A DNA stretch of 64,000 bases, from IMG/VR virus record IMGVR_UViG_2744054962_000001; one strand, written 5' to 3'. A program made the translations under genes and the position numbers. Positions 1-64,000 of this stretch are shown here, piece after piece (within the stretch, counting starts at the first letter, position 1; each line of letters opens with the position of its first letter). This stretch comes from a virus (taxonomy: Duplodnaviria > Heunggongvirae > Uroviricota > Caudoviricetes). The notes under the pieces are model-generated. The model saw only the letters and a program-made list of their open reading frames with translations. It was not told the DNA's origin and did no database searches.

Positions 1-2
1 CG

Positions 3-461
3 AACGAAAATAACACTGACGCCTATATTAATGAGGTGTCCAAAGCAGTTGGTGTAACCGCAGACATGATTATCGATCTGCATGATTACGACATCCTTCG
101 ACCTTTAGTTGAGGCAATCATTCGCCACGAGAATGGCCGAGGCCCGCTAAAAACGCTGAACACCTGGTATGCGGCAGAAGTTATTGAGGAAGGTCTGCGT
201 CGAGCTGGCGTCGTTAAGCCGGTGAAAACGGTGAAGGCTGTTCCTGTAACGAAAGAAACCGCAGGCGCAACTGTTACAGCAGGTATTGGTCTGGCGCAGC
301 TTGCCGATGTTATGCCGCAGATTTCCGCTGCTATGGATAAAGCACAAGGTCATATCTCTAGCGGGGATACAGTACGCATCATCTTCGGTATTGCCACTAT
401 TGTTGTGGCAGGATTCATTGCCTGGTCGCAGGTAAGAAAACACCAGAAAGGGATGGTCTAA
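3..461 (+). CDS. C-terminal fragment of hypothetical protein with C-terminal transmembrane helix; 5-prime end lies outside window; possibly part of the lysis cassette preceding the spanins
   Basis: Frame open from window edge with no stop; hydrophobic stretch IIFGIATIVVAGFIAW near C-terminus; ends 2 bp before the Rz-like gene. Confidence 0.35.
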   Translation, partial: NENNTDAYINEVSKAVGVTADMIIDLHDYDILRPLVEAIIRHENGRGPLKTLNTWYAAEVIEEGLRRAGVVKPVKTVKAVPVTKETAGATVTAGIGLAQLADVMPQISAAMDKAQGHISSGDTVRIIFGIATIVVAGFIAWSQVRKHQKGMV

Positions 462-462
462 T

Positions 463-714
463 ATGCTAGGCAGCCTGATGACAAAGCTAAAAGTTGCTTT
501 GATTACGCTGGCTGCCGTTCTTTTCGTTCTTGTCGGCGCTTACACGATGGGCGGGAATGCGGCGCGACGAGCAATGGAAGAGAAGGCAAAACAGGAAGAC
601 AGAAAACGACTTCAAAACACAGTGAAAGTGGTGAATGAGACGAGCAGTAAAATACGTCAGAAAGATGCTTCTGCCGTTCATCGTGAGTTGTATGATAAGT
701 GGGTGCGTCATTAA
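463..714 (+). CDS. i-spanin (Rz-like)
   Basis: N-terminal TM helix (ALITLAAVLFVLVGAY) followed by charged periplasmic domain; overlaps a +1 frame lipoprotein ORF, the classic Rz/Rz1 arrangement. Confidence 0.55.
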   Translation: MLGSLMTKLKVALITLAAVLFVLVGAYTMGGNAARRAMEEKAKQEDRKRLQNTVKVVNETSSKIRQKDASAVHRELYDKWVRH

Positions 715-850
715 ACCACAAACAGCCAGCGTGTTGTTCTGCGATGGGGCTGAGCCTATCTATATCAGCAATAATGATGTAATGACTGAAGAAACCGAAC
801 GCCAAATCCTTTTTCACAATACGATGGGAGAGAGGGTTTGTGGTTGGTGA
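635..850 (+). CDS. o-spanin (Rz1-like outer membrane lipoprotein); true start probably the internal Met near 665
   Basis: Signal peptide with lipobox-like ISGC overlapping the 3-prime end of the Rz-like ORF in a different frame. Confidence 0.5.
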   Translation: MRRAVKYVRKMLLPFIVSCMISGCVIKPQTASVLFCDGAEPIYISNNDVMTEETERQILFHNTMGERVCGW

Positions 851-857
851 TGTCGAA

Positions 858-879
858 GTTCCCCTCAAATGAGGGGAAC
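858..879. terminator. Bidirectional hairpin between convergent genes
   Basis: Perfect inverted repeat GTTCCCCTC aaat GAGGGGAAC between + strand gene ending 850 and - strand gene ending 883. Confidence 0.55.
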
Positions 880-882
880 ACA

Positions 883-1404
883 TTATTCTTCGAACAATTT
901 TTCGATAGATTTTGTAGGATAGAACAAAGAACGCTCGTTGTTACCAACCAGCTGGATAAAGCCTAAACTTTTATAAAACGCCTTGGCTTTGTCATTTAAC
1001 GCCTCAACGAAAAGTCCATGAATGCCTACAGCAAGAGATGCATTGTACACAACGCGCATTGCATGTGTTACAAGCATTGAGCCAAATCCTTGACCTTGAA
1101 GGGACTTGTCCAAAGCCAGCCTACCCAAAGTAACACTTGGAACATTCCGATAAGGAACCTTCTTTTGTTTGCTTCTTGAAGGTAAGGACTCCTTTTCAAA
1201 ACAACTACCTGACAAAGTGTAATATCCTAACACTTTTGGCCTTTCTTCTTGAGTGCAAAGCACATAAGCACGAAGAATTTTTCCCTCATGCTGCCTTTTT
1301 AAGTGGTTGGCTAAAAAGGCGTTTAGTGACTCTTCGCCGCAATCAAAACCGTTTAGATCATAATCTTTCTCTCCAGAGAAAATCTCTATCGTTGTATTGC
1401 TCAC
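883..1404 (-). CDS. GNAT-family acetyltransferase, probable type II toxin (TacT/AtaT/KacT-like)
   Basis: 173 aa with GNAT-like motif QGQGFGSMLV; immediately downstream of a small RHH/DUF1778-like gene with 7-bp spacing. Confidence 0.6.
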   Translation of the reverse strand: MSNTTIEIFSGEKDYDLNGFDCGEESLNAFLANHLKRQHEGKILRAYVLCTQEERPKVLGYYTLSGSCFEKESLPSRSKQKKVPYRNVPSVTLGRLALDKSLQGQGFGSMLVTHAMRVVYNASLAVGIHGLFVEALNDKAKAFYKSLGFIQLVGNNERSLFYPTKSIEKLFEE

Positions 1405-1411
1405 GAGTAAA

Positions 1412-1720
1412 CTACTCCATGCTTTTCAGACGATCAGCAGCTCGTTTCAGCTTGTCGTTCGGTGCCGGAGGATTGCTTATAGCGTCCATAACCAGATTCC
1501 AGGATTCTTCATTCAGAACTAGTCTACGGTGTTGCTCTATAACTTTCACGGCACGTTCAGATGCACTGCTAACCATAAACTGAGTAATGCTCTGGTTAGA
1601 CATTGCGGCAGCTTCCTCGATGATGCTTTTATCGTCATCGGTTAATCTCAAATCGATGCGCTGCTTTTTTAGTGCTGACATGTATTCCTCCTGATGGCCG
1701 TGATGTAGGAAGGCCATCAA
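1412..1720 (-). CDS. Small antitoxin-like protein (TacA/DUF1778-like), partner of GNAT toxin; true start probably an internal Met
   Basis: About 90 aa, upstream of GNAT gene on the same strand; LKKQRIDLRLTDDDKSIIEEAA resembles ribbon-helix-helix antitoxins of GNAT toxins. Confidence 0.55.
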   Translation of the reverse strand: MMAFLHHGHQEEYMSALKKQRIDLRLTDDDKSIIEEAAAMSNQSITQFMVSSASERAVKVIEQHRRLVLNEESWNLVMDAISNPPAPNDKLKRAADRLKSME

Positions 1721-1999
1721 TCTCCTCTGTTCAAACTGAGTTTTCGACTCAAAAATTACTTTAAAAGGCTATAGCCCATTACGTGTGCATTATCAAATTG
1801 TGTACGGCATATCACCGTACTTGTAATATAGAGGTCATTGTTACTTTTTTCAACAGACAAATACAAGCTATGATTGCCAATTGTTAATCACAACCTACCA
1901 TTTAACCTTTACACCGCAGCCGTAGGCATTTAGGCTATATCACATATAAGAAAACAAGTTGTTTCAGACGATAATTATATACGCAAAGGGAACTCTCCA

Positions 2000-2668
2000 A
2001 TGACCAAGATCTTTGTGGTTGGCGGCACAAAGGGCGGGCCTGGCAAATCCACCGTTGCCCAGCAAATTGCCGTTTGCCTGAAAGTCAAAAAGAAGAAGAA
2101 GGTTTATATTACCGATATAGATATTCAGCGCACGACAACGAGCTGGTGTGAAGACCGTCGACAGAACGAAGACCTTGAGCTGATTCCTTTTGCATACGTT
2201 CAGGATGACATCATTAAGCACCTAAAATCGCTTCAGGGTAGAGCTGAGTTTGTAGTGGTAGATGCTGGTGGCTTCGACTCCGAAATTCAGCGACAAGCGA
2301 TGCTGATGGCTGACGTTATCATTATCCCGCTGCGTCCTAAGCGTCGTGATTTGAAATCTTTACGTGACATCGATCCTATTATCGACAATGTTCGCAATGT
2401 AAACGATAAAGTGAAGGTCCGCGCGGTCATGAACCAGTGCCCGGCTTTGCCATCACAAGTGTCTCGCATTCTGGCGGCTAAAGAGATTGTTGAGACGTTT
2501 GGAATCGAGTCTGCGCCAGTCAATCTATATAACCGCAACGTCTATGATGATGCGGAAGAGTCTGGTCGTTCTATCTTTGAAATGACCGGTAGCGAGCGCG
2601 ACAAAAAGGCGGAAGCCGAGTTTGAAGAATTTGTAGATTATCTGTTGAGTCTGGAGGAAGAAGAATAA
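2000..2668 (+). CDS. parA: ParA-family partition ATPase (type Ib, small ParA)
   Basis: Deviant Walker A GGTKGGPGKST near N-terminus, 222 aa, followed by overlapping small DNA-binding gene. Confidence 0.8.
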   Translation: MTKIFVVGGTKGGPGKSTVAQQIAVCLKVKKKKKVYITDIDIQRTTTSWCEDRRQNEDLELIPFAYVQDDIIKHLKSLQGRAEFVVVDAGGFDSEIQRQAMLMADVIIIPLRPKRRDLKSLRDIDPIIDNVRNVNDKVKVRAVMNQCPALPSQVSRILAAKEIVETFGIESAPVNLYNRNVYDDAEESGRSIFEMTGSERDKKAEAEFEEFVDYLLSLEEEE

Positions 2669-3027
2669 TGTCCATGAAAATGGGTGACCTAGCAAAGCGC
2701 AAAGAGCCTGATGCACCGGCTAAGAACACAACTCCTTTGCGCCAACCAGTCAGACCACAAGGACGCCCGACTCGTGGCAAAGAGAAAATTAAAAGCCGCA
2801 CTATGTCACTGGAAGACGAATACTTCGAGCTTCTGGAAATGATGAAGTTTATCCCTCGTTTCGAGAAGTTCACCCGCTCTGATGTGATTCGTGCTGCTAT
2901 TTTCCATCTGGCAGAGAAGTCACCGCAGGAAATCGAGGACATCGTAAAGCTGAACGAGGCGATCACAGCTGCCGATGTCACGATGCGTACCGATGAAATT
3001 AAACGCGAGTTGATGAAGAAAGGTTAA
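2668..3027 (+). CDS. Partition centromere-binding protein (ParG/ParB-like, probable RHH fold)
   Basis: 119 aa, start overlaps parA stop; basic N-terminus and short helical C-terminal domain. Confidence 0.5.
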   Translation: MSMKMGDLAKRKEPDAPAKNTTPLRQPVRPQGRPTRGKEKIKSRTMSLEDEYFELLEMMKFIPRFEKFTRSDVIRAAIFHLAEKSPQEIEDIVKLNEAITAADVTMRTDEIKRELMKKG

Positions 3028-3028
3028 T

Positions 3029-3052
3029 AATGTGGGCTGTCTAGCCCACATT
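3029..3052. terminator. Hairpin terminator after partition operon
   Basis: Inverted repeat AATGTGGGCT gtct AGCCCACATT followed by ATTTTAATT. Confidence 0.55.
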
Positions 3053-3078
3053 ATTTTAATTAAAGTGGAGTGATAATT

Positions 3079-3831
3079 ATGCATTCGTTAGTATTTGCAT
3101 TTAAAAACATACTCAAGAATGTTATAAACATACTAGGGATGTTAAATATTTTTTTGTCTGTGAGGGTGAGGAGAAAAGATATAAAAGATAAATTAAAGGA
3201 ACTTAACAAAGAAAAAGAACAATTAAAAAGCGAAGAAATTATTATTGATTTATACAAGAAAAAACTCGCATCTAGCAAGGGGAAAGCTAATGATAAAATC
3301 AAAGGAAAAATAATTCACTATATTATTGCTAGAGAGTTGGGGAATGATCCTGATAATGAAGATTTGCGACATAATCTTTTTACAAAGATAAAAGAATCAG
3401 AAGAACAGGTTGAAGTTCTGGTTCATCAAAGAGAAGTAAGTGAGCAGGCGAACAAAAAAGAAACGGTTGTCAATTTGTTTTTATTGTATGAAAAAAATAA
3501 ATTGTTTAAAGCTAAGGGGTTGGCTGTGTTTCTTATAGTTATAAACTTAATTATAGTTGCGACTCTCGATCTTCCAGCTTGGTCATTGATTATAAGTTTT
3601 TTTATTCTCTCTTTGATTATGTTGAAAGATCAGATACTTACTATTCGTGTCTCTAAAGGATATTTTGGCACAAGTGCGTATGAAGCGGTTCAATTGCTTA
3701 AATTCATCAGAGAAAATTCAGACAAATTTGACTCAGATGATAATGACGGTAGCCCACGACGGATATTGAATCCGAAGGGAACAACAAAAAAATCAGACAA
3801 CCTATTCGATAAAGGGTGGCAAAATGTTTGA
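3079..3831 (+). CDS. Predicted multi-pass membrane protein in AT-rich island, unknown function
   Basis: ATG at 3079 preceded by GGAG; hydrophobic segments at N-terminus and mid-protein separated by lysine/glutamate-rich segment; local GC far below surroundings. Confidence 0.5.
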   Translation: MHSLVFAFKNILKNVINILGMLNIFLSVRVRRKDIKDKLKELNKEKEQLKSEEIIIDLYKKKLASSKGKANDKIKGKIIHYIIARELGNDPDNEDLRHNLFTKIKESEEQVEVLVHQREVSEQANKKETVVNLFLLYEKNKLFKAKGLAVFLIVINLIIVATLDLPAWSLIISFFILSLIMLKDQILTIRVSKGYFGTSAYEAVQLLKFIRENSDKFDSDDNDGSPRRILNPKGTTKKSDNLFDKGWQNV

Positions 3832-4246
3832 CCTTGACGCCATCACTAAGTTCTTAAATCAGTGTTTTGATCTACTTTTGCTCAAGCAGCCTTTAAGAAC
3901 TGTTTTCGGAATACTGATTGGTTTCATTATTTTTGTTTTTGTTTACACGTTTAGGTTTGCGATAGCTCAAGATTTTTATGAAATAGATGGTGTGCATTAC
4001 GCTGCATGTTTCGTCATCGGTGTTTTAGTTGTTCACACAAGAACATTTTTTGACGTTATCAAGGGCACCGCAGTTGATGAAGAAATAGATAGTATGATCA
4101 GAGTTATTACGAAGCAGCCACACCTATCTAACCATCAAAAAAACATAATGATTGCTGAAATACTTCAAAAAGAAATTGCAGCCATAAGTCAAAAGAGATT
4201 GGATAAAGTTGCACAAGAAATAACGGAGAAAAAGACAACTGATTAA
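3824..4246 (+). CDS. Predicted membrane protein, unknown function, co-transcribed with preceding gene
   Basis: Start overlaps upstream stop; two hydrophobic helices (ILIGFIIFVFVYTF, ACFVIGVLVV); AT-rich. Confidence 0.5.
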   Translation: MFDLDAITKFLNQCFDLLLLKQPLRTVFGILIGFIIFVFVYTFRFAIAQDFYEIDGVHYAACFVIGVLVVHTRTFFDVIKGTAVDEEIDSMIRVITKQPHLSNHQKNIMIAEILQKEIAAISQKRLDKVAQEITEKKTTD

Positions 4247-4254
4247 TTTAATTA

Positions 4255-4316
4255 CCTGTTTCTGTATATAAATAATAAGTAACTTATTAAATATATATAC
4301 GGAAGCAGGTCTTTTA
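4255..4316. terminator. Long AT-rich hairpin, probable terminator; member of a two-copy repeat family (second copy 53417-53480)
   Basis: Arms CCTGTTTCTGTATATA and TATATACGGAAGCAGG pair with G-U wobbles, followed by TCTTTT. Confidence 0.5.
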
Positions 4317-4417
4317 AAAGACACCCACCAGAACAACTCCCTTCCGTTTCCACTTCCAAAAACTGCCACCAGTCGCTATCATCCGCTCATTGTGATAAGT
4401 AAGTAACTACCTACCAG

Positions 4418-5167
4418 GTGAGCCACATGAGCCAAATCTTTTTCGATACCATCGACAACAACCAGTACGACTTCATGACAGAGTGGAATACCGCTGTTAT
4501 GGACAAGTGGGTTGCTGAAAACATTGGTTTGTCGCGCTGTAAAGACGAGGCTGAACTCTTCGAGACGAAGTGGTTTGATTATCGCGACATGCATCCTCTC
4601 ATGGCCACCTGTCTTTTTACGGAGGCATACAAACGTCAGTACTCAAATATCATGCTGACGCACGGTCGCGAACACTTTGAAACAGCTCCGTTCACCACCG
4701 GGTTAAAACGTCTGCCTTATCAGGAGTTGTCGACTGCCAACAAAACGTCGCTATGGAAAGCACGCCAGTTTGCGGATCGCTATTGCTGCTCATACGACTA
4801 CTTTATCTCCACCGTTCTTTCCGCAGCTGCACGACGGCTGTGGGACAAGCTGCCGCGCCCACAGCATTTGTGGCAGCCAGAACTGATTGAGATATTTGAA
4901 GAGAAATTAGCCAGACGCGCAACAACCCGTCTGGATGACTCTCTGGTTAGCTTTAAGCATATGGGAGACATGCAGTTCAACCCGATTCAGGAAAGCTATT
5001 TTGAGTGGATTCTGGAGCGTTTGCGCACCATCCCTCGCAGTAAGCGCATACGCGCAATTTTCTCCGCTATCTGGCTAATGGAAATCGTTCCAGAGCGCCT
5101 TATTTCCGCCCACTTTCCAGAAGAACTGGAAGAAGCACGGCGGTTTATTGATCCCCTATCTAATTAA
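4418..5167 (+). CDS. Hypothetical protein
   Basis: 249-aa ORF upstream of helicase gene; no recognisable motif. Confidence 0.45.
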   Translation: MSHMSQIFFDTIDNNQYDFMTEWNTAVMDKWVAENIGLSRCKDEAELFETKWFDYRDMHPLMATCLFTEAYKRQYSNIMLTHGREHFETAPFTTGLKRLPYQELSTANKTSLWKARQFADRYCCSYDYFISTVLSAAARRLWDKLPRPQHLWQPELIEIFEEKLARRATTRLDDSLVSFKHMGDMQFNPIQESYFEWILERLRTIPRSKRIRAIFSAIWLMEIVPERLISAHFPEELEEARRFIDPLSN

Positions 5168-5177
5168 CTAATACTAG

Positions 5178-5191
5178 AAAACAATTTGTTT
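5178..5191 (+). promoter_or_regulatory. Conserved palindrome AAACAAnTTGTTT upstream of extended SD (family member)
   Basis: AAACAATTTGTTT 20 bp upstream of ATG 5211; same motif recurs at 17422, 32912, 45666, 55884, 56613. Confidence 0.4.
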
Positions 5192-5210
5192 AAAAAACAA
5201 AGGAAAGCAC

Positions 5211-6551
5211 ATGACCGAACTTTGCCATACAGGACGCGGGCTGTCCGAAGAGTTTGATGAAGATTTCCAGAACAGACTGACGGCATATTTTTGTCGTGAT
5301 CACGAGTTTCTTACTCGTGCGGGAGATCTGGTTGTGCCTAGCCAATTTGCCAATGCGGCCAATGCCATATTGGTTAATATGGTTTCGGGCTATTACCGTA
5401 TGTACAAGAGCGCGCCCTCTTCATCTGCAATTCTGGATATGCTTAAGCGTGCGAAACGCGATAAGACTATCCGTGAGGAACTATTCGCCGATGTTGTTGC
5501 TGCGTTTAAGCGCATCCTTGCAGAAAAATTGTCCGATACCTCGTACATGGTTGACCAGGTATCAACCTTCGCAAAAAGCGTAGCGTTTGATGATGCTCTG
5601 ATTAAGGCTGCTGAACTGAAAGAGAAAGGCGACTTTCAGGGGGCGATGGCAATCATGGCCAAGGTTCAGCAGATTGGATCGAACGAAGCGACCGGAATCT
5701 ATGACTACTACACCTCCGCAAGTGAGCGATTGAAAGCGCGTGAATATGAGGCTTCAGAGGAGTATGTACCAAACAGTATTACAACTGGACTCCCTCTTCT
5801 CGATAGGTTGCTGTACCAAAAAGGCTGGGCAAAGCGCGAAATGGTGCTCTTCATGGGGTTCGCTAAATCCGGTAAATCGACCGCAATGGGTGAGTTTTCC
5901 ATAAACGCAACGCTTGCTGGCTACAATGTTCTGTATCTCTCGCTGGAGGTTCACACCACCATTTTATCCGACCGTTTTGATGCAAGATTGTCGGAGACGG
6001 AAATGTCCAAGCTGGTGGAACGGCGCGATGAGGTTCATCGTAAGTTGGCAGAGTTGGGAGCCACGAAGGGGATTGGTAGTTTGTGGGTTGTTGAGCGTCC
6101 GTCAGGAAGTATGTCACCGGCAGACCTGGATCGTATGCTTAACAGCATGAAAGCCAATGGCATGGTGCCTGACATGGTTGTTGTCGACTACGCAGATTTG
6201 ATGCGTGCCAGTTATGACCTTCGTGATGATCGCGCCAACATTCGTAGTATCTACACCGATTTACGTGCTCTTTATGACAAGCATAACGTTGCTGGTATCA
6301 CGGCGTCGCAAACAAACCGTGAAGGTGGCGCGTCAGAAGTTGCCACAATGATGCACGCTGCCGACAACATCGAAAAAGTACGTATTGCTGACCTGGTAAT
6401 AACGATCAACAAAACCGAAGAAGAAGAAGCGAAAGGAGAGGCTCGTCTCTACTTTGCTGGTTCGCGTAACCAGCAGGGAGGGATCAGCATTCGCGTTAAA
6501 CAAAACCTCGAACAAATGCGCTTCATTGAGCGAATCTTAGACGTTACCTAA
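5211..6551 (+). CDS. Replicative DNA helicase (DnaB-like / RecA-fold)
   Basis: Walker A GFAKSGKST, Walker B-like VVVDYADLM, 446 aa, immediately upstream of primase. Confidence 0.7.
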   Translation: MTELCHTGRGLSEEFDEDFQNRLTAYFCRDHEFLTRAGDLVVPSQFANAANAILVNMVSGYYRMYKSAPSSSAILDMLKRAKRDKTIREELFADVVAAFKRILAEKLSDTSYMVDQVSTFAKSVAFDDALIKAAELKEKGDFQGAMAIMAKVQQIGSNEATGIYDYYTSASERLKAREYEASEEYVPNSITTGLPLLDRLLYQKGWAKREMVLFMGFAKSGKSTAMGEFSINATLAGYNVLYLSLEVHTTILSDRFDARLSETEMSKLVERRDEVHRKLAELGATKGIGSLWVVERPSGSMSPADLDRMLNSMKANGMVPDMVVVDYADLMRASYDLRDDRANIRSIYTDLRALYDKHNVAGITASQTNREGGASEVATMMHAADNIEKVRIADLVITINKTEEEEAKGEARLYFAGSRNQQGGISIRVKQNLEQMRFIERILDVT

Positions 6552-6557
6552 AAAATA

Positions 6558-6580
6558 AGCGTGGAGAACACCTCCACGCT
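6558..6580. terminator. Hairpin after helicase gene
   Basis: AGCGTGGAG aacac CTCCACGCT inverted repeat. Confidence 0.4.
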
Positions 6581-6632
6581 TGATTCATTGGTGAAACAAC
6601 TTTTCTTTTGCCAAACCACAAAAGAAAAACAC

Positions 6633-7814
6633 ATGAGCCTTTATGTTATATCAACATTTAGGTTGGTCACAATATTGCCTGTTAAAAGTGGAATTATCGT
6701 GAGCGAGCTGAAAGAGCTAATTACCGAATTAGATTTTGAACAATGGTTGGATACTGAAGGTATCGTTTATCGACGTGGAGGCGTGAGTACTCGCGGTCGT
6801 GAAGTGAATATCAAGGAGTGTCCGGTATGCGGCAGCTCCAACTGGAAGGTATATTTCAATCTGACCAGTGGCGTCGGTAAATGCTTCGCTGGTGATCATC
6901 CCGAAGAGATTCAGTTCAATAAGCTGGTCTTCCTCAAGCACTACAGCGGTAAATCACGACGACAGTTCGAGGAATATGTGCAGAACGCTCTTCTTTCCCA
7001 GGGGTGGGCACCAAAGAAAGAAGAGATAGTGCTTGCAAGCACAGTCGAGTTAGAGGGACCAGTTGCACTCCCTCGTCATTACGATCTTCCTATAGATGGC
7101 CATCTTCCAGACTATCTGGTTGAACGAAATATATCGCCTGAAATGGCAAAGTATTTTGACCTACGATACTGCGTCGAAGGCAAGCACGCTTATGTAGATC
7201 CGTATACAGATCAGGTTAAAGGACAGATTTTCGATATGCGAATACTGATACCGGTTTACGATCTGGATGGGGTAATGAAGACATTTCAAGGACGAGACAT
7301 TACCGGTACAGCAGAACGCCGCTACCTCTTCCCTATGCAGCTGCCGGCGTCGGGTAAGTTTCTCTACAACGGCCACAACGCAGTCGGGAAACAAACAGTC
7401 GTTGTGTGTGAAGGGGCATTTGACGTAATGGGCGTGAAGCGAGCCATCTTCGACGAAAAGACGCTGAGGGATTATGTAGAGCCAATTGGCACGTTCGGGA
7501 TGCACTTGTCCGGAAATATGAATGAGGACGCTGAAGATCAGTTGGGCGCGTTCCTGACGCTCAAGGCGCGTGGATTACGCAACGTCATCATGATGTGGGA
7601 TAGCGAGAAGCAAGCGATCCGCAACACCATGTCGGCGGCCAAACGCCTCACCAGCATCGGACTAAATGTCAAAGTGGCCTGTCTGGGCGAAGAAGGTCTC
7701 GACCCCGGCGACGCGACGCCAGAGCAGATCCTCAAAGCCTATTATCGTGCCAAGCCTTACTCCAAACAGCTGGAGTTAAAATGCAAAGTGCTCGGTATCA
7801 AGTCACTCGTGTAG
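6633..7814 (+). CDS. DNA primase (DnaG-like zinc-binding domain plus TOPRIM)
   Basis: CPVCGSS...CFAGDH zinc-ribbon-like motif and TOPRIM-like VVVCEGAFDVMG; ATG at 6633 preceded by AAAAGAAAAACAC motif; ORF track start 6561 overlaps the upstream hairpin. Confidence 0.65.
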   Translation: MSLYVISTFRLVTILPVKSGIIVSELKELITELDFEQWLDTEGIVYRRGGVSTRGREVNIKECPVCGSSNWKVYFNLTSGVGKCFAGDHPEEIQFNKLVFLKHYSGKSRRQFEEYVQNALLSQGWAPKKEEIVLASTVELEGPVALPRHYDLPIDGHLPDYLVERNISPEMAKYFDLRYCVEGKHAYVDPYTDQVKGQIFDMRILIPVYDLDGVMKTFQGRDITGTAERRYLFPMQLPASGKFLYNGHNAVGKQTVVVCEGAFDVMGVKRAIFDEKTLRDYVEPIGTFGMHLSGNMNEDAEDQLGAFLTLKARGLRNVIMMWDSEKQAIRNTMSAAKRLTSIGLNVKVACLGEEGLDPGDATPEQILKAYYRAKPYSKQLELKCKVLGIKSLV

Positions 7815-7815
7815 T

Positions 7816-55920: not shown

Positions 55921-56346
55921 ATGTTAGGTTTCTTCAAAAAGAAAACTCGTAAAGCAGTTATCGAAGTCAAAAAAATGGAGAACCGTGATGCGGTTGAGGC
56001 CACCGTGTGGGGCGCGTACATGATCTCCTATGCCGACGGCACATGTGACGCAAAAGAAATTGCCATTCTTGAGAAGACAATTGCAGCTCTGCCTGCGTTT
56101 TCTCCGTTTGCTGGTGAAATTGCCCAAATGAGCGCCAATATCCGTGCTCGTTACGAAGCGTCCCCTCGTTCTGCTAATGCACAGGCTATTCGTGAGCTGT
56201 CTGATATTGCGGGTACTCCAGAGGCGGTCGATGTTCTGTGTCTGTGCCTTGATATTGCCGATCAGGATGGCATTGGTGAACAAGAAGAGCAGGCACTGAA
56301 AAAGATCGCCCAGGCGCTTCAGTTGTCACTGGATGCTTATCTCTAA
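55921..56346 (+). CDS. Hypothetical protein, possibly TerB-like
   Basis: 141 aa, all-helical acidic protein; TerB resemblance is by overall pattern only. Confidence 0.35.
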   Translation: MLGFFKKKTRKAVIEVKKMENRDAVEATVWGAYMISYADGTCDAKEIAILEKTIAALPAFSPFAGEIAQMSANIRARYEASPRSANAQAIRELSDIAGTPEAVDVLCLCLDIADQDGIGEQEEQALKKIAQALQLSLDAYL

Positions 56347-56504
56347 TGCTTGAGAGATTCCGGCTTGTGATCGTCATTGCTCTTCTGGTGATGGCGGTGT
56401 TGGTGGATTTTACGGGAAAGATGATGTCTGTCATTTCTGATGGCGTCCTCATTGGTCTGGCGATCTACTTCGCTTATCCGCTAGTCCGTAAAGCAACGTG
56501 TTAA
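56346..56504 (+). CDS. Small membrane protein (52 aa)
   Basis: ATG overlaps upstream stop (TAATG); two hydrophobic helices; followed by hairpin terminator. Confidence 0.3.
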   Translation: MLERFRLVIVIALLVMAVLVDFTGKMMSVISDGVLIGLAIYFAYPLVRKATC

Positions 56505-56506
56505 TA

Positions 56507-56533
56507 ACAAGGGCCAAATGGCCCTTGTGTTTC
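56507..56533 (+). terminator. Hairpin terminator
   Basis: ACAAGGGCC aaat GGCCCTTGT followed by GTTT. Confidence 0.55.
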
Positions 56534-56643
56534 GTTGACCGAAATAGAGAGTTTGCACCTTTACGTTTAGCTTGCTCCCCTTTTATGCCACATCACAATA
56601 AAGCCAATAAGAAAACAACTTGTTTAAGAATTAGGAAAAACAC

Positions 56644-57213
56644 ATGTGCAAGAAATGCAAAGCGATAGCTGATGAACAAAACGCCTTATTCGAAGAAATG
56701 GATGCTAATGAACTGGTCAAAATGTTAGCCATTCTTCGAGGAATAGAAGACGTTTCCATATTTGAGAGAGTGGTTACAGCACTTAATTTTGAGTCCACCT
56801 TTGAAGAGCCAACTCAGGTTGTAGCTTTAGCACATCATTTCGGTGTTCATTATCTTGCTGAAAAAGAGCGCGCTGATAAGTTGCAGGCGACTTTGGATAT
56901 GGTGAGCGAGACTCAACGAACTGATGACACTAACAAGAGTGAGACGATTATTGCCAGCAAAGATCGTGAAATTGCTGGGCTTAAATCCTCTCTAACGATG
57001 TTGATGTCTGCGTTCAATCTTATGTCTTCTCAGGCGGGTTATAAAATGCCATCACTAAACAGCGATGATCCGATGGCCGTTCGTCAGCTTTTGGGAGCAA
57101 TGGCCGACCAACTCGACGACACAAAGAGTCGCCTTGAAGACATGATGCGTGAGTTAAGCCATCGACATAACCTCGCAACACAACCACACAAAGTCTTTCA
57201 AAGCTCTAATTGA
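56644..57213 (+). CDS. Hypothetical protein
   Basis: 189-aa ORF preceded by AAAACAACTTGTTT motif and GGAAAAACACATG. Confidence 0.45.
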   Translation: MCKKCKAIADEQNALFEEMDANELVKMLAILRGIEDVSIFERVVTALNFESTFEEPTQVVALAHHFGVHYLAEKERADKLQATLDMVSETQRTDDTNKSETIIASKDREIAGLKSSLTMLMSAFNLMSSQAGYKMPSLNSDDPMAVRQLLGAMADQLDDTKSRLEDMMRELSHRHNLATQPHKVFQSSN

Positions 57214-57217
57214 TCTG

Positions 57218-57241
57218 ATATGGCCGCATGATCGGCCATAT
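57218..57241 (+). terminator. Hairpin terminator
   Basis: ATATGGCCG catgat CGGCCATAT. Confidence 0.5.
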
Positions 57242-57267
57242 TGTGTTGATAAAAACAAGGGTGAAAA

Positions 57268-57549
57268 ATGGCATACGGTACAGGGATTTACAACAATAAA
57301 GGAATTAACGTTACTGGCTTCCTTACACCTATTTTTTTTCTTGATCGATTTACGGCGTCATCAGGCTCTAAGACGTACTCTAATCCGCCACCGGGTAAAT
57401 CACTACATGCCGTGTGGTCATTAATGCCTCTTAACAACGACAACTACATCAATTTACCTGTTCCAAATGTTACTATTAATGGAAATACGGTTAGTTGGTC
57501 AAATTTATATACGGGGCTTGGTTCTTACATATACACATACTGGGGATAA
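57268..57549 (+). CDS. Hypothetical protein (AT-rich module, gene 1)
   Basis: 93 aa, Asn/Tyr/Gly-rich; lower GC than neighbours. Confidence 0.4.
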   Translation: MAYGTGIYNNKGINVTGFLTPIFFLDRFTASSGSKTYSNPPPGKSLHAVWSLMPLNNDNYINLPVPNVTINGNTVSWSNLYTGLGSYIYTYWG

Positions 57550-57551
57550 TT

Positions 57552-58166
57552 ATGTTCGGGATGTCAATTACTCAATCAGATGGAAGTTTGTGGATGAGTC
57601 CTGAATTTACTCCGCAAAATCTGATTAATAAAGGGACAATGTCTACATCTAAAGGTTCTGTTTTTCAAACATCAATCCCATCAAACAAATCATGTTTTTT
57701 TTTCATAAAAAGCAGTAATAAGGCGAACATGATGTTTATTCATGAACATAGTAACGGATACAATGCTCTCAGATTGCATCAGGTAAATGGTAGCCCCGGA
57801 ACAATAACAGTTTATGCTTTTTCTGATATGGTGTTACCACATTCTGGCTATGGCATTGCCATGTATAACAGCGCAGGCGCAATGGTGTATCACGGTGAGA
57901 TGATGCCCCTTGATGCGAAACTTATCACTATTTCTGACCCTCAATTTACAATAGATATGGGGTATCCATGTGCGGTAATGCCTGCTATGGTTGGAGTATA
58001 TAACTATAGACGAACCGATTACGACAGACCTGTCTATGTAACAATGACAGGTGCAACTGGAAACCAAGTATATAACGGTCAATGGTATTCCGGTAATGTC
58101 ACATGGGATATTAAGAAGATTTATACAAACAAAATTCTGGTGATAAATACCTCCAAGTATGATTAG
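57552..58166 (+). CDS. Hypothetical protein (AT-rich module, gene 2)
   Basis: 204 aa from ATG 57552 two bases after upstream stop; Asn/Tyr/Ser/Met-rich; no known motif. Confidence 0.4.
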   Translation: MFGMSITQSDGSLWMSPEFTPQNLINKGTMSTSKGSVFQTSIPSNKSCFFFIKSSNKANMMFIHEHSNGYNALRLHQVNGSPGTITVYAFSDMVLPHSGYGIAMYNSAGAMVYHGEMMPLDAKLITISDPQFTIDMGYPCAVMPAMVGVYNYRRTDYDRPVYVTMTGATGNQVYNGQWYSGNVTWDIKKIYTNKILVINTSKYD

Positions 58167-58315
58167 CCAATGCCTTTATTTGAAGGATTGCCTGTTTATT
58201 TCTATTTAGTACCTTTTCATTTTTGAAATAATAGCACCATTAAACAAATCACTTCTTAATGGTGCTATTATGAATACAGCCCTTTCCATCATCGACGATC
58301 CCAACTCAAACGCTG

Positions 58316-58343
58316 CTATCGACTATCGACTATCGACTATCGG
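58316..58343. repeat. Heptanucleotide tandem repeat (CTATCGA) x 3 plus a variant copy
   Basis: CTATCGACTATCGACTATCGACTATCGG immediately upstream of start codon at 58350. Confidence 0.6.
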
Positions 58344-58349
58344 CAGGAA

Positions 58350-58691
58350 ATGAATGTCATCCACGAAATCGTGGCCGAGTGCGAGAAAGAGATCGCCTTC
58401 ATGTATCAGGTACACGACTTCGTTTATGGCGACGAACGCCACAACATGATTAATCGCCTGCTGAGACTAAACCATCGACCAGATGAAGATCGCTCACGTT
58501 TAAATCGAGGTTGTTTGGATAAAGTCGATCTGGAATGGGTGAAACAGAATATTTGGGCCGAGTACTGGAGGAAGGTCACGGACATGACTAACGTTTTGCT
58601 GATCATGCCAGCTTCCCGTCGAGATGAGTGGCGCGAGCAGTTTATAGAGGGCAAACAGGAAGTCATCAAAACTGACAGAACCGGCTACTAG
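58350..58691 (+). CDS. Hypothetical protein
   Basis: 113-aa ORF downstream of heptamer repeat. Confidence 0.45.
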   Translation: MNVIHEIVAECEKEIAFMYQVHDFVYGDERHNMINRLLRLNHRPDEDRSRLNRGCLDKVDLEWVKQNIWAEYWRKVTDMTNVLLIMPASRRDEWREQFIEGKQEVIKTDRTGY

Positions 58692-58818
58692 ATGAAGGTT
58701 AAAGAGTTCGTTGGTGTACCTGAGTTCAAAGTGGATACAGACATCCCTACGATGGTTTGATCTGACAGCTATCTGCAATTTGCACAGATATCTGCCAGAT
58801 CTGGTTCAGATTAATACA

Positions 58819-61800
58819 CTATATCTGCCCACCTACTCCTTTGAACTTTTCAATAAACGTGACGATTTTCTGGAAAACGGTCTGTTTTTTCGTTTTATAT
58901 TGCGGGTTTAACGGACTAAGTTTTGGTAATGTCTCGTTTAATTCTGTGCCATTTTCGGTGGCGTATTCGCGTTTTAAAGACGTGCGAATATAGCGTTTCG
59001 CCGCCTCTTCATTGAGATTTTCTTCTTTTATCAATGCTTCTGCTTCACGTTGCTGTTCGCGTTGAGCAAACGTAAAGAATGCCTCAATGATACTGGCTTT
59101 GTCTGGTAAATCATCCAGGTTCGTTTGCTGAATAAAATCGACCACCAGGCCCTCTTTCGCCCGGTTCCCCAGGCTTGAACGAATTAAGCGTTTGACCTCT
59201 TCGATCATTTCGCCCTTGCCTTTATTTTGTCTGTTGTGTTCGAAAATCAGTCCAAGGATATAATCCAGGTTTATTTCCTGAGACTTCAGCAAATCGACCT
59301 CAAAAACTACGTCATCCCAGTCAGTGGTTGATTTCTCTTTTTTCTCAGCTTCTTTCTCACGGCGTTGCCAGTCGCGAATATCGTTATAGGCAGAACGATA
59401 ATCCTGAATCTTGCGTTCAGCAGGGAGACGAATCGTTTGCAATTCAGCGAACTTTTCATCATCCACATAATGTTCTTCTTTGAATTTTTCTACCGCAACA
59501 GGATCGCTAAGATCGATTTGTTGCAGGGCTTTCAGCGTGGCAAATTCATCATAGTTTTGCAGGATGTTCTCGGCACGCAGGTATTCACCAAACAGTTTAA
59601 CGAAGTCTTTCTTCTCTTTTTCACTTTCAATACTGGTAGGGTCAGGGAACCGTTGTTCCAATTCTGAAACTACTGCCATAAAGCCGCGCTTAGCTTCACC
59701 AGTGGCAGCATCAGTAAAGCCTTCCATATACTCTGCATAACTCTTTTCTAAAACCACATTTTTGGTGTTTTTGCCACCAAACAGCGTTATGGCATCAATA
59801 GTTGAGCGTTCCAGATCCCGGAAAGTGACGATATTACCGAAGGTTTTAGTTGCATCATAAATACGGTTGGTGCGGGAAAATGCCTGCATCAAGCCGTGAA
59901 AACGCAGGTTTTTATCGACGAATAGCGTGTTCAATGTTGGAGCATCGAAGCCAGTTAAAAACATCCCCACGACAATTAACAGATCGATATCCTGATTTTT
60001 AACCCGCTGGGCTAAATCACGATAGTAGTTCTGAAAACCGTTACTGTCGGTGCTGAAGTTAGTTTTAAAATAGCTGTTATACTCACGAATTGCAGCATCA
60101 AGAAACTCTTTAGCACTGCTGTCCATTGCGCTGGTATCAAAAGTTTCATCGGATATTTCACCAATGGCATTTTGTTCTTCATTAGCGGCAAAGGAGAAGA
60201 TTGTCGCAACACGCAGTGGGTTATAGGTGGCAGATTTATTAGCGGCTTCCTCTTGTAACCGTTTAAACGTCGCGTAATAGGCTTTCGCGGCATCCACGCT
60301 GCTTACTGCCAGCATGGCATTAAAACCTTTGGAACCAGGGAAAGTACGGTGGGTCTTCTGACGGAAATTATTCAGAATATATTGCGTGATTTCCTGAATA
60401 CGCATGGGATGAAGAAACGCCTGCTGATTTTCAGCCGCACTCAGTTTTTTCTCGTCAGTTTCTGTCTCTAAAGACTTAAACTGTGGCCGCACATCGTTGT
60501 AGTCCACCTTGAATTTGAGCACTTTTTCGTCACGAATCGCATCGGTAATTACATACGAATGCAATTCACGACCAAATACGCTGGCGGTTATTTCTGAGCC
60601 TAAGGCATTTTCCGGGAAAATAGGTGTGCCGGTAAAACCAAACTGATAATAGCGTTTGAATTTCTTCTTCAGGTTTTTCTGCGCTTCTCCAAACTGGCTG
60701 CGGTGACATTCATCAAATATAAACACCACTTGCTGATTGTATACAGGCAGGTCGCTTTCTGCTTTCATCAGGTTATTAAGTTTCTGAATAGTGGTGACGA
60801 TAATTTTGTTATCGTCCTTATCCAGATTTCGTTTAAGACCTGCTGTATTTTCCGAGCCGTTAACACTATCTGGCGAAAAACGCTGATATTCCTTCATGGT
60901 CTGGTAATCGAGGTCTTTCCTGTCGACCACGAAGAAGACTTTATCAATAAAGTCCAGTTCTGTTGCCAGACGCGCGGCTTTAAAGCTGGTCAGTGTTTTA
61001 CCAGAACCGGTGGTGTGCCAGATAAAGCCACCGCTTTCGGGGTTAGACCAGTTTTTCGCTTTATAGGAGCTGTTGATTTTCCATAAGATTCGTTCGGTGG
61101 CGGCAATCTGGTACGGTCGCATCACCAGTAGTGTCTGACTACTGTCAAACACGCTGTAGTTCACCAGAACATTCAGCAGAGTATGTTTCTGGAAAAAGGT
61201 AGCGGTAAAATCTTTGAGGTCTTTAATCAGCGTGTTGTCTGATTTCGCCCAGTTCATGGTGAAGTCAAAACTATTTTTATCGCGCTTTGTGGTGTTGGCA
61301 AAGTAACGGGTATCGGTGCCGTTAGAAATGACAAACAGTTGCAGATACTTAAACAGGGAATTTTCGCTGTTAAAACTCTCTTTACTGTAACGATGTATCT
61401 GGTTGAAAGCCTCACGAATCGCCACGCCGCGCTTTTTCAGTTCGATTTGCACCAGAGGCAAGCCATTAACCAGGATAGTTACGTCATAACGGTTAGCGTG
61501 AGAACCTGCCTGTTCAAACTGCTGGATAATCTGCACTTTGTTGCGCATGAGATTCTTTTTATCGATCAAATAGATGTTCTCAAGACGCCCGTCATCAAAA
61601 ATAAAGTCGCAAATATAGTCGATATGGATTTTACGGGTCTTATCCAGAATGCCATCACTCGGGTTGTCCAGATACTGCTCCGTGAAACGCCGCCACTCGC
61701 TGTCATTAAATACCACACCATTGAGGCTCTGAAGCTGTTCCCGAACATTGGACAGCATCGCCAACTGTGATTTTACCGAAATAAATTCATAGCCCTGATT

Positions 61801-61935
61801 CCGCAGGTCCTGAATCAGTTCCCGTTCCAGGTCCGATTCGCTCTGGTAGCTGTCGCCTGTTTGCTCAGCTTTGATGTACTTATCAAGGACGATAAAGTTA
61901 TTGGATTCAGCAATGGTGTGTGTTTGATGAGTCAT
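58819..61935 (-). CDS. hsdR: Type I restriction enzyme R subunit (Type IC, EcoR124I-like)
   Basis: 1038 aa; N-terminus [24 protein letters not shown] matches my recollection of EcoR124I HsdR; helicase motifs TGSGKT and DECHRS. Confidence 0.8.
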
Positions 61936-62056
61936 AGCGCATCCTTTGTGCCGCCTGGCAAGGGCCGGAAGGGCGTTAAGAGTGACTTCCGGCGCGTAAA
62001 AAATAGTCTATATACAGACCGGGTGTTAAGGAGGCCCGGTCGGTAGCAATGGTCAA

Positions 62057-63394
62057 TTATTTACTGACAGTTTCAGGTTTTGGGAAACTGAACAGTAAAT
62101 CACGATAGTACTCGTATTGTTTCTGGCGCAACTCGATTTCACGCGGAAGGCCTTCGGTGATGGAGTTAGTCAGGGTGTCGAATTTATCCAGAATCCGAAC
62201 GATTTCAGACTGGATGGCAAGGGATTTTTCCGGATTGCCCGGGCAGGGGATGGGGATGAGTAGTTTTGACATCAATGCATTTGAGCTTAGATTCGGCTGT
62301 GCTCCGCCCCCTGCAAGGATATAAATAGTCTCTGTATTTAACAATAAAAAATGGTATAAATAATTATTGTTTAGAATATTTTCTTTGGGTATAAATTTTC
62401 CAACCCGTTGATTAAGATAACATTTTATTTCTTTTTTATAAATCCCCACTTTTCCTGTAGTGGCACCTGACATTGCAATCAATATATTTCCCATAGATAC
62501 CTCAAAGGAGGATAAATCTTCCTTGTAATCATTTAGTGAAAAGTATTTCACCTCATCTAAGTTAACATTAAACCCATCTATATTTGTGATTCTAACTATC
62601 GGTAACCCAGTTTCTTTAAATAAGCTGCTTTTAAATGCAAATCCATTTTTAAAATCACAAACATCCTTCAGGGTTTTCCACTCAACCTCAACCCCATCCA
62701 GCAATTTTTCCAGATAAATAGGTTTTTCCTGCTCCTCATCAAAACTCAACAACTGGTCGCGATAGTAGTTGTATTGTTTTTTACGCATGCTAAGCTCTGC
62801 TGTAAGCTCTGCTGTAAGGGCGCTGAATTTGTCCAGAATTCGCACGATTTCAGACTGGATAGTAAGGGATTTTTCTGGATCATTAGGACAAATGATAGGA
62901 ACCAGTATTTTTTTAAATCTTGATTTTGAAATATTAAAGCGTGTTACACCACTAGCTGTTTTTGCTATTTCAGAGCGCATGAAATGGGTTCGAAAAAGGT
63001 ATTTTGCGAACTCCGGTTTGATTTTTATGCTGTTACTGAATCTGATACCAAAAGAAAAGCTGTTTAAATACACTGATTCTTCGAAGTGTACTGTAACGGC
63101 GGAGGACATGCCTGCTTCATCAGCAATTTCAGATGAGCCAGTAAATAAAACATCCCCATATCTTACTTTATTTTGTCTTTCTCCCTCACTAATATATACA
63201 TAATCAGTAGGGTAATCATTCACATCTAAATAACCAAATATTTTTTTGTATGAAACATATCTGGCATTACCGTTCTCAAAATCAGATTTACTCTTTCCTG
63301 TTAGGCCACCATAAATTTCAGCGACGTTCCCCAATGGCAACCACTTAACTTCAACCCCATCCAGCAATTTTTCCAGATAACTTAACTCGCTCAT
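62057..63394 (-). CDS. hsdS: Type I restriction-modification specificity subunit (Type IC) with two TAEL repeats
   Basis: Conserved N-terminal, central and C-terminal blocks ([20 protein letters not shown]...[23 protein letters not shown]) with two AT-rich variable target-recognition domains. Confidence 0.8.
62793..62816 (-). repeat. 12-bp tandem repeat encoding TAEL-TAEL in the hsdS central conserved region
   Basis: AGCTCTGCTGTA x2 on + strand, equivalent to ACAGCAGAGCTT x2 on coding strand. Confidence 0.7.
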
Positions 63395-64000
63395 TTCTGT
63401 ACCTCGCAGCCTTCAATTTCAGCCACAATCGCATCAATATCTTTACGCAACTGGTCGATTTTGCTGACCGTGGTTTTCAGCTCTGCATTCAGTTCAGCAA
63501 TATTGATTATTTCGCGGTTATCTTTCGCTTCCACATAGCTGCTTACCGACAGGTTATAGTCATTCGCGACAACGGTCTCAAACGTGACAGATTTCGCCAG
63601 ATGAGCAACATCTTCCTTGCTGGCAAATACCTGCATAATCTGTTCGATATGGGCATCGGTCAGGATATTGTTGTTAGTCTCTTTTTTGAACAGTTCGCTG
63701 GCGTCAATAAACTGAACTTTGGTATCCGTTTTATGTTTAGACAGCACCAGAATGTTTACGGCAATGGTGGTGCCAAAGAACAGGTTCGGTGCCAGTGAAA
63801 TCACGGTTTCGACATAGTTATTATCGACCAGATACTGACGGATTTTCTGCTCCGCGCCGCCACGGTAAAAAATACCCGGGAAGCAGACAATCGCAGCACG
63901 ACCTTTGGCAGAAAGATAGTTCAGTGCATGTAATACAAACGCAAAGTCAGCTTTGGATTTGGGGGCCAGAACGCCAGCCGGGGCAAAACGCTCATCGTTA
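63391..64000 (-). CDS. hsdM: Type I restriction-modification methyltransferase subunit, C-terminal part (5-prime end beyond window)
   Basis: Frame open to window edge on minus strand; overlaps hsdS start by 4 bp. Confidence 0.7.

Follow-up and report, generated by a model that had tools for sequence, protein, structure and literature searches.

A probable SSU5-supergroup phage-plasmid of Escherichia coli: replicon, exchangeable cargo slots and a possible defence locus after parA

Identity and nearest relatives

Based on collinear matches to known phage-plasmids, we consider it very probable that the 64,000-nucleotide stretch of DNA analysed here (IMG/VR virus record IMGVR_UViG_2744054962_000001, positions 1 to 64000; hereafter the window) belongs to an Escherichia coli phage-plasmid of the SSU5 supergroup, pLF82/Cyrano type, and represents ~60% of an element of roughly 105-114 kb. 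The window opens with the last part of the lysis cassette, crosses genes for maintenance, replication, recombination and nucleotide metabolism, and reaches into a cargo region (Table 1). Three blocks of it (1-25000, 25001-50000 and 50001-64000) were used as queries against collections of phages, plasmids and complete E. coli genomes. The best phage match was Escherichia phage Cyrano (OV696614.1), which is plasmid pLF82 of E. coli LF82 (NC_011917.1) and covered 85% of the first block at 98.0% identity, 95% of the second at 98.8%, and 63% of the third, where matching extended only up to 58754; identity over the three blocks was 97-99%. Over the whole window, 85% of the length is collinear with Cyrano (as far as 58757) at 96-98% nucleotide identity, and 57 of the 64 window proteins have Cyrano homologues, most of them 99-100% identical. 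Salmonella phage SSU5 (NC_018843.1) came next, with 63%, 85% and 34% coverage of the three blocks; identity was 82.5% in the first and 79.1% in the second, and lay between 78 and 82% across all three. When compared protein by protein, 51 of the 64 gene products had SSU5 homologues, typically 75-95% identical, in an order that stayed collinear throughout, with the lysis cassette at one end and the cargo region at the other.

SSU5, pHCM2 and pMT1 form one phage-plasmid supergroup (PMC7969092), which pLF82/Cyrano shares (PMC7969092; PMC9928086), so that the resemblance to SSU5/pHCM2-type phage-plasmids proposed in the initial annotation of this DNA is borne out. The BLAST and synteny comparison that it had called for revealed the gene order of SSU5 and four variable slots relative to Cyrano. 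Neither a chromosomal region nor an unrelated phage family emerged as the best match; the top matches were Cyrano/pLF82, SSU5 and E. coli plasmids, and matches to chromosomes were short. Moreover, each segment of the window, the four variable ones included, was found at least 99% identical in some sequenced plasmid, and the window as a member of the SSU5 supergroup is therefore already known. For its closest phage relative, the phage-plasmid state is documented: Cyrano/pLF82 is present at about 5.5 copies per cell, viromes of LF82 contained its DNA, and virions with SSU5-like dimensions were attributed to it (PMC9928086).

The plasmid collection, comprising 72,556 records, gave a consistent picture. 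The first block matched 1,391 records, 1,327 of which are predicted to be non-mobilizable, from Escherichia, Klebsiella, Salmonella, Enterobacter and Yersinia hosts, and the best matches were non-mobilizable E. coli plasmids of roughly 105-114 kb. The 105-kb plasmid NZ_CP133922.1, typed IncFIB by MOB-suite, covered 100% of the third block at 99.9% identity. At least 80% of the second block was carried by 51 of the 5,426 complete E. coli genomes (~1%), the best being a 109,907-bp plasmid with 100% coverage at 99.3% identity; the high-coverage records shown, two of them for this block, were plasmid-sized (about 106-110 kb). The chromosomal matches listed for these genomes comprised only a 121-bp cspG-like stretch and a single record's 76%-identical match to 738 bp of the SPFH gene. 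Extrachromosomal maintenance is thus indirectly supported by the plasmid-sized relatives and the shortness of the chromosomal matches. These data also bear on a chromosomally integrated prophage or genomic island carrying plasmid-like genes, an alternative that could be read into the tyrosine recombinase gene annotated as 'integrase'. Keeping in mind that RepA, iterons and ParA are present as well, we regard integration as extremely improbable. The family is widespread in enterobacteria, and S. Typhi (pHCM2) and Y. pestis (pMT1) have members of its supergroup too; by infection, these elements spread cargo such as genes for resistance, defence and restriction-modification (R-M).

The replicon

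The initial annotation had described an iteron replicon with a RepA initiator, and this was confirmed by Rep3_N and Rep3_C domains in RepA and by a strong excess of the iteron motif CTMYAGTGGWT, with 23 matches at no more than one mismatch in the whole window against 4.8 expected. Nineteen of the 23 lie inside 34556-36657 (2.1 kb), and those 5' of repA recur at a spacing of 21 bp. RepA is 99.7% identical in amino acid sequence to that of Cyrano and 91% identical to SSU5_069; a solved-structure search with it gave no usable match. With a WH1/WH2 initiator, flanking direct iterons, a DnaA box and a GATC cluster, the locus would be classed by its sequence as an iteron-controlled Rep_3 replicon. 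Between 36050 and 36660, the module of iterons, GATC cluster and DnaA-box-like sequence is duplicated in tandem with a ~380-bp period, the two copies being around 79% identical. SSU5 also has the dual-module origin, at 89% identity to the window overall, the spacer between the modules being more diverged.

The replicons of RepFIB and P1, built of an initiator, origin iterons and a copy-control iteron field, served as the comparison. In the window, as in these systems, the initiator gene lies between origin iterons and a copy-control iteron field, accompanied by DnaA box(es), a GATC cluster and an element-encoded Dam. By analogy, the layout would match RepFIB/P1 logic, and it fits the IncFIB typing of the near-identical relative NZ_CP133922.1. 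With P1 the window further shares the character of a plasmid prophage with addiction and partition functions, as well as TciA-like and Cra-like genes. It differs in having two tandem origin-like modules and a short ParA of 222 aa; the virion type and genome backbone of P1 are unrelated, and nucleotide similarity between the two is confined to the tRNAs and the R-M cassette.

A strictly virulent phage of the SSU5 kind, without a plasmid state, would be in keeping with the large T4-like set of replication and recombination genes, and with the isolation of SSU5 on rough Salmonella strains and its proposal for phage cocktails, as far as the SSU5 papers cited in PMC7969092 go. Against it stand the replicon, with its iterons and copy-control field, the parA, toxin-antitoxin and repressor-like genes and the R-M cassette, as well as nearest relatives that are plasmid records from sequenced isolates; we give this possibility practically no weight.

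Partition, addiction and lysis functions

The ParA ATPase that the initial annotation had named is present, and parA overlaps a gene for a 119-aa protein which may be the DNA-binding partner of ParA, for which it is the natural candidate. No Pfam family and no solved-structure match was found for this protein, and the 'RelE/ParE' toxin label that it bears in the Cyrano record received no support from Pfam and PDB searches. A search for centromere-like repeats around parA yielded only a perfect 13-nt, terminator-like hairpin at 3026-3055, after the pair of genes. The ParB-like genes of relatives fall outside the window.

Upstream of parA, the GNAT toxin and TacA antitoxin genes are, judged from their families, a predicted plasmid addiction module. 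The pair has no match in SSU5 and is named KacT and antitoxin in the Cyrano record. The two conserved minus-strand genes at 25429-26277, labelled HicB and HicA in the same record, correspond to phrog_2620 ('excisionase and transcriptional regulator') and phrog_5923, to which no function is assigned.

As for the lysis genes, the expectation held for Rz, Rz1 and the C-terminus of the endolysin; the remainder of the endolysin gene is cut off by the start of the window, and the holin of relatives is positioned outside it. The endolysin is 99% identical in amino acid sequence to CYRAN_23 and 93% identical to that of SSU5. In Cyrano, a tail fiber gene lies immediately upstream of the point homologous to the window start.

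Several observations weigh against an intact and active phage-plasmid. Genes for packaging, head and tail lie outside the window, leaving only the endolysin C-terminus, Rz and Rz1 visible, so that this copy could be defective. Likewise, the partner and centromere of ParA were not identified in the window, no sliding clamp or clamp loader was recognised among its proteins, and the HicA/HicB label of the pair at 25429-26277 has no Pfam support. Finally, it is analogy with other systems that underlies the proposals of copy-number control by handcuffing, Dam control, multimer resolution and a replisome of the element's own that comes into use only once induction has occurred.

The first of these points is shared with the most serious alternative, namely that an SSU5-like phage-plasmid lost functional virion genes and that the window comes from its defective descendant, now an ordinary plasmid passed on only by vertical inheritance. 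Consistent with such decay, two genes of the window (GNAT, reduced to a remnant, and DUF4942, truncated) are pseudogenes, and some of the matching plasmid records depart from the usual 105-114 kb (e.g. 76, 95, 152 and 198 kb). On the other hand, the lysis genes that can be seen show no damage as far as the edge of the window, all genes for replication and recombination are likewise intact, at 99-100% identity to their counterparts in Cyrano, to which virions are attributed (PMC9928086), and the closest full-length relatives measure 105-114 kb. Taken together, we judge a defective plasmid to be improbable and retain the reading of the window as part of a phage-plasmid of the pLF82/Cyrano type.

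Variable segments and the distribution of accessory genes

To this known backbone our analysis makes modest additions: a map of its slots, a hotspot beside parA with an uncharacterised gene pair, and several unannotated or mislabelled features. Mapping with blastn against Cyrano resolved four collinear blocks (1-3030, 4251-7802, 9616-37381 and 38630-58757) separated or followed by replaced segments at 3031-4250 (S1), 7803-9615 (S2), 37382-38629 (S3) and 58758-64000 (S4). The sites at which the backbone takes up cargo thus follow parA-orf119, the primase gene, the ASCH-like gene and the orf223 region. Cyrano, which differs from the window in these four segments, shares with it the replicon, tRNAs, toxin-antitoxin pair, csp gene, RecA intein and recombinase-repressor module. 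SSU5 has the genes of S2 and S3 and lacks the GNAT/TacA pair, two of the three tRNAs, the module of glutaredoxin, recombinase and repressor, the csp gene, the RecA intein, TciA and the R-M cassette; all of these except the R-M cassette are common to the window and Cyrano.

The initial annotation had placed accessory genes mainly on the minus strand or in AT-rich pockets. When a variable gene was defined as one without a homologue in SSU5 or in Cyrano, 10 of the 13 minus-strand genes were variable against 7 of the 51 on the plus strand (nominal Fisher p 2.5e-5, the genes being clustered and not independent). The variable segments have a GC content of 42.6% against 46.5% in the backbone, and the 500-bp windows lowest in GC all fall within S1, which has the lowest value (32.7%), and hsdS. 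The claim therefore holds, apart from RepA and the conserved pair at 25429-26277, which are minus-strand genes of the backbone.

A possible defence hotspot after parA

Segment S1 could not be aligned to Cyrano and was found in only 7 of the 72,556 plasmid records. It contains two membrane-protein genes, whose SSU5 counterparts are only 32-39% identical, and in Cyrano the position is taken by a PD-T4-3-type GIY-YIG gene. To assess the slot more widely, we collected IMG/VR loci around ParA homologues and delimited the interval from the 119-aa gene to the next conserved gene in 73 loci and the window. This interval occurred in 18 sequence types among the 74 elements, and relatives either have no cargo there or carry one of at least 17 others. 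It was empty (about 196 bp) in 5 loci and filled by a PD-T4-3-type GIY-YIG gene, the Cyrano type included, in 24 (PADLOC E=6.5e-23); other cargos were PD-T7-5 (PADLOC E=4e-139), DUF2971/PDC-S31 genes, a KAP NTPase (PDC-S49) and several uncharacterised genes. The cargo type of the window was present in 2 of the 74 elements, with four further versions 33-51% identical to it. The pair thus exists in at least five versions, whereas the sequences on either side keep about 90% identity or better, a pattern that fits conflict genes which diversify or are often exchanged. Among 5.8 billion proteins, just 14 clusters of homologues of the 253-aa protein were found, and their named sources are all Enterobacteriaceae, mostly contigs of about 100-110 kb.

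Because the same slot holds known and candidate defence genes in relatives, we tentatively put forward, by association, that the S1 pair could act against phages or in superinfection exclusion as a module not characterised before, and that the site just after parA could be a defence hotspot not yet described, a possibility that we hold to be rather less than even. The defence function of PD-T4-3 itself has been validated experimentally (PMC12409345), and E. coli elements of the SSU5 group have been reported to carry R-M, PD-T4-3 and PD-T7-5 (bioRxiv 10.1101/2025.09.12.675607), although we found no description of the slot beside parA in the literature. A search of PADLOC-DB 2.0 with the proteins of S1, S2 and S3 and several conserved uncharacterised proteins returned nothing significant (matches at E>=0.001). 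An AlphaFold2 model of the 253-aa protein, built from a 12-sequence alignment, was all-helical with a mean pLDDT of 55 and a pTM of 0.32, too poor for use. The hotspot could be mined for new defence genes.

Cargo slots after the primase gene and beside the replicon

The S2 slot contains a single minus-strand gene for a 365-aa protein, 57% identical in amino acid sequence to SSU5_041 and lacking any Pfam, PADLOC or solved-structure (PDB) match; the slot is empty in Cyrano. Among 72 elements (71 IMG/VR loci and the window), it was empty in 34, and the others carried 11 cargo types, that of the window included: minus-strand genes for secreted Sel1-repeat proteins, membrane proteins and other uncharacterised products, as well as small lipoprotein genes. 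We considered S2 as a second defence hotspot, but its alternative cargos gave no real match to a defence model, and a PtuA match in PADLOC (E=1.2e-5) on a Sel1-repeat cargo, with no passing stretch, was treated as spurious. It is therefore described here as a plain cargo slot. The stretch replaced in Cyrano also takes in the start of the neighbouring gene for a 264-aa product, which is 96% identical to SSU5_042 and only 43% identical to its Cyrano counterpart, and which thus appears to be a mosaic allele, swapped within an otherwise Cyrano-like backbone.

Segment S3, present in 252 plasmid records with Yersinia and Salmonella among them, follows the 214-aa gene that carries the ASCH label. It combines a frameshifted pseudogene of the GNAT gene that SSU5 (SSU5_071) and relatives from Salmonella and Enterobacter keep intact with a lipoprotein gene that Cyrano lacks. 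The lipoprotein is 98.8% identical in amino acid sequence to SSU5_072, against only about 86% for the flanking genes, which suggests, as far as sequences can tell, recent exchange or strong constraint.

The type IC restriction-modification cassette

Segment S4 holds an R-M cassette in the order hsdM-hsdS-hsdR. HsdR matches EcoR124 HsdR (2w00) over its full length with 2255 bits, and the conserved regions and TAELTAEL repeat of HsdS match those of EcoR124 HsdS, with a 12-bp repeat in 2.3 copies at 62791-62818. The two proteins and the gene order are those of type IC, the EcoR124 family, and no prrC gene lies between hsdS and hsdR. Unlike EcoR124I/II, the cassette sits on a phage-plasmid and both of its HsdS target-recognition domains are different, so it should recognise another DNA sequence. 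The hsdM frame remains open to position 64000, and the gene is complete (1557 bp) in the 99.9%-identical NZ_CP133922.1; the truncated hsdM of 137 aa in the list of open reading frames is accordingly an artefact of the window edge.

P1-like phages carry cassettes with about 95% identity to this one, and the tRNA cluster is about 92% identical to that of P1, P7 and D6. Since the backbones of P1/P7/D6-type phage-plasmids are otherwise without nucleotide similarity to that of the window, these shared segments point to a probable exchange of cargo between two families. At its insertion point, the cassette truncates a resident DUF4942 gene after about 158 codons, and in NZ_CP133922.1 it replaces roughly 6 kb that in Cyrano hold an intact DUF4942 gene and Ea-like genes. 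Within the DUF4942 gene, a (CTATCGA) repeat at 58316-58342 has 3.9 copies and puts the frame out of register. The copy number varies, from 1.9 in Cyrano (in frame, gene intact) through 3.9 in the window to 4.9 in NZ_CP133922.1 (in frame), and this looks like slipped-strand variation.

Replication, recombination and nucleotide metabolism

The 'nearly complete' toolkit for DNA precursors and replication that the initial annotation had claimed was found, as were three tRNAs; among its members are helicase, primase, ligase, DNA polymerase III alpha subunit, exonucleases, single-stranded DNA-binding protein (SSB), RecA, SbcCD, NrdAB, ThyA and dihydrofolate reductase (DHFR). Every enzyme named has Pfam or PHROG support, and since neither a sliding clamp nor a clamp loader was recognised, the description is fair. 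The products of 4418-7814 are 87-100% identical in amino acid sequence to those of SSU5 and Cyrano, and the polymerase is 88% identical to that of SSU5. The CobT-like and CobS-like genes are also conserved in SSU5 under the label 'porphyrin biosynthesis', and the single tRNA of SSU5 directly precedes the CobT-like gene, the module at 13808-16891 having no SSU5 matches. Within that module, the helix-turn-helix (HTH) gene has a Cyrano homologue, CYRAN_45, which has been named a putative repressor (PMC9928086). SSU5 carries an Ant gene where the window has the TerB/TciA gene.

Two of the enzymes deserve comment. The RecA gene is interrupted within the P-loop, at about 29575-30840, by a 422-aa intein with a LAGLIDADG homing endonuclease. 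Its junctions (GPPSAGK/CVTAD...IISHN/TFLAT) were placed by alignment to the intein-less RecA of SSU5 (358 aa); the splice-junction residues are all intact, and from its sequence it would be a class 1 intein. The thymidylate synthase (47968-49071, plus strand) is of the ThyA type, with a solved-structure match at E=8.6e-64, and aligns to E. coli ThyA in three stretches, with insertions of ~100 residues in total. The 'ThyX' label in the Cyrano record is wrong, the protein matching families and structures of the ThyA type.

A proposed two-mode life cycle

Cumulatively, the gene content suggests a life cycle with two modes. In the plasmid mode, by analogy with RepFIB and P1, RepA would bind the 21-bp-spaced iterons upstream of its gene and open the origin together with host DnaA. 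The dense GATC cluster and the element's own Dam point to methylation-dependent timing of initiation, and the iteron field downstream of repA may limit copy number by handcuffing. ParA, probably with the adjacent small protein, would segregate the copies, and the GNAT/TacA pair, possibly with a second pair, would penalise loss of the element. Resolution of multimers is the most likely task of the tyrosine recombinase, and the HTH protein beside it is a candidate lysogeny repressor.

Upon induction, the element would be replicated by its own helicase, primase, polymerase III alpha subunit, epsilon-type exonuclease, gp32-type SSB, ligase, RNase H and flap exonuclease, with the clamp and clamp loader probably borrowed from the host during lytic replication. 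The RecA, UvsY, SbcCD and RuvC-like functions would process the products of replication, NrdAB, glutaredoxin, ThyA, DHFR and MazG would raise the supply of deoxynucleoside triphosphates (dNTPs), and the endolysin and the Rz/Rz1 spanins would release particles. The exchangeable slots may hold cargo useful to the host or to the element, namely the R-M system, the csp gene with its thermosensor leader, the lipoprotein and the defence hotspot after parA.

Table 1. Positions of genes and other features in the window
Feature	Position	Strand	Family or remark
Endolysin, C-terminal 152 codons	1-461 (frame 3-461)	+	phrog_873, E=3.9e-43; gene begins upstream of window
Rz spanin	463-714	+	phrog_1026/phrog_1275 Rz-like spanins; agrees with Cyrano annotation
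Rz1 spanin	731-850	+	phrog_1026/phrog_1275 Rz-like spanins; agrees with Cyrano annotation
GNAT toxin	883-1404	-	phrog_1758 acetyltransferase
TacA antitoxin	1412-1720	-	PF08681 TacA1, E=8.6e-26
parA	2000-2668	+	MipZ/AAA_31/CbiA/ParA families
119-aa gene overlapping parA	2668-3027	+	candidate partition partner
S1 membrane-protein gene, 253 aa	3070-3831	+	phrog_22270 (no assigned function)
S1 membrane-protein gene, 140 aa	3824-4246	+	phrog_17322 (no assigned function)
Conserved gene, uncharacterised	4418-5167	+	
DnaB-like helicase	5211-6551	+	PF03796 DnaB_C
DnaG/Toprim primase	about 6696-7814	+	weak DNAG_N and Toprim_2 matches
S2 cargo gene, 365 aa	7816-8913 (slot 7803-9051)	-	phrog_22938
Conserved uncharacterised gene, 264 aa	9052-9846	+	
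Conserved uncharacterised gene	9850-10392	+	
ATP-dependent DNA ligase	10427-11749	+	PF01068
tRNA-Asn(GTT), tRNA-Thr(TGT), tRNA-Ser(TGA)	13339-13586	+	ARAGORN, Rfam
gp49/66-family gene	13808-14158		PF13876
Glutaredoxin	14155-14400		PF00462
Uncharacterised gene	14585-15139	-	
Tyrosine recombinase	15407-16510	+	PF00589; annotated 'integrase'
HTH repressor-like gene	16505-16891	-	weak HTH_19; phrog_8 transcriptional regulator
CobT-like VWA protein	17454-19562	+	PF11775, PF06213
CobS/MoxR-like AAA ATPase	19658-20893	+	PF07728
DNA polymerase III alpha subunit	21074-24580	+	PF07733, PF17657, PF14579, PF02811
CspA-family gene and cspA-type 5'UTR thermoregulator	24859-25277 (CDS 24884-25096)	-	Rfam RF01766, PF00313
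Two conserved genes	25429-26028, 26053-26277	-	HicB, HicA labels in Cyrano record
UvsY-like gene	26532-26963	+	label from Cyrano record
gp32-type SSB	27081-28109	+	PF08804
5'-3' exonuclease	28119-29114	+	PF02739/PF01367
Small open reading frame	29108-29380	+	
RecA with intein	29383-31722	+	PF00154, PF14528, PF14890
SPFH/Band-7 membrane protein	32019-32849	+	PF01145
Iteron field downstream of repA	34465-34946	both	about 10 copies; putative copy-control, incA-like
repA, Rep_3-type initiator	34949-36004	-	Rep3_N and Rep3_C (PF01051, PF21205)
Origin-like module 1	36050-36290		6 iterons, 4 GATC, perfect DnaA box 36279-36287
Origin-like module 2	36446-36660		5 iterons; 6 GATC within 58 bp, the window's densest GATC cluster
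Conserved 214-aa gene	36747-37391	+	phrog_2105; ASCH-domain label in Cyrano record; no Pfam match
S3 frameshifted GNAT pseudogene	about 37467-37895	+	split over two frames
S3 lipoprotein gene	37939-38442	-	lipobox LIGC
SbcD	38573-39754	+	PF00149 (SbcCD block)
SbcC	39984-41900	+	PF13476, PF02463 (SbcCD block)
Uncharacterised gene	41890-42633	+	
RuvC-like resolvase	42643-43212	+	phrog_159
dNTP block: NrdA, NrdB, MazG-like, ThyA, PNKP-phosphatase-like, DHFR, P-loop kinase-like ATPase, uncharacterised gene	43286-51648	+	Pfam
DnaQ-type (epsilon-type) 3'-5' exonuclease	51094-51648	+	Pfam
Dam-type N6-adenine methyltransferase	52802-53395	+	PF05869
RNase H	54345-54989	+	PF00075
TerB-domain protein, P1 TciA-like	55921-56346	+	PF05099
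Truncated DUF4942 gene, 5' part	58274-58757	+	SSU5 label 'DNA methyltransferase'
hsdR	58819-61935	-	PF12008 EcoR124_C and other HsdR domains
hsdS	62057-63394	-	Methylase_S
hsdM	63391 to beyond 64000	-	N6_Mtase; C-terminal 203 codons visible

A cold-shock gene with an RNA leader

A permissive Rfam search of the window (E<=0.05) returned only the three tRNAs and a cspA-type leader, which precedes a gene of the CspA family. The leader belongs to RF01766, scoring 187 bits against a gathering score of 78 and matching model positions 1-428 of 428, and the product of the gene has the cold-shock domain (PF00313, E=1.3e-33). Over 121 bp the gene is 87% identical in nucleotide sequence to the chromosomal cspG. 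It is absent from SSU5, and in Cyrano the same protein is encoded with 100% amino acid identity at a place where the record has no annotated coding sequence.

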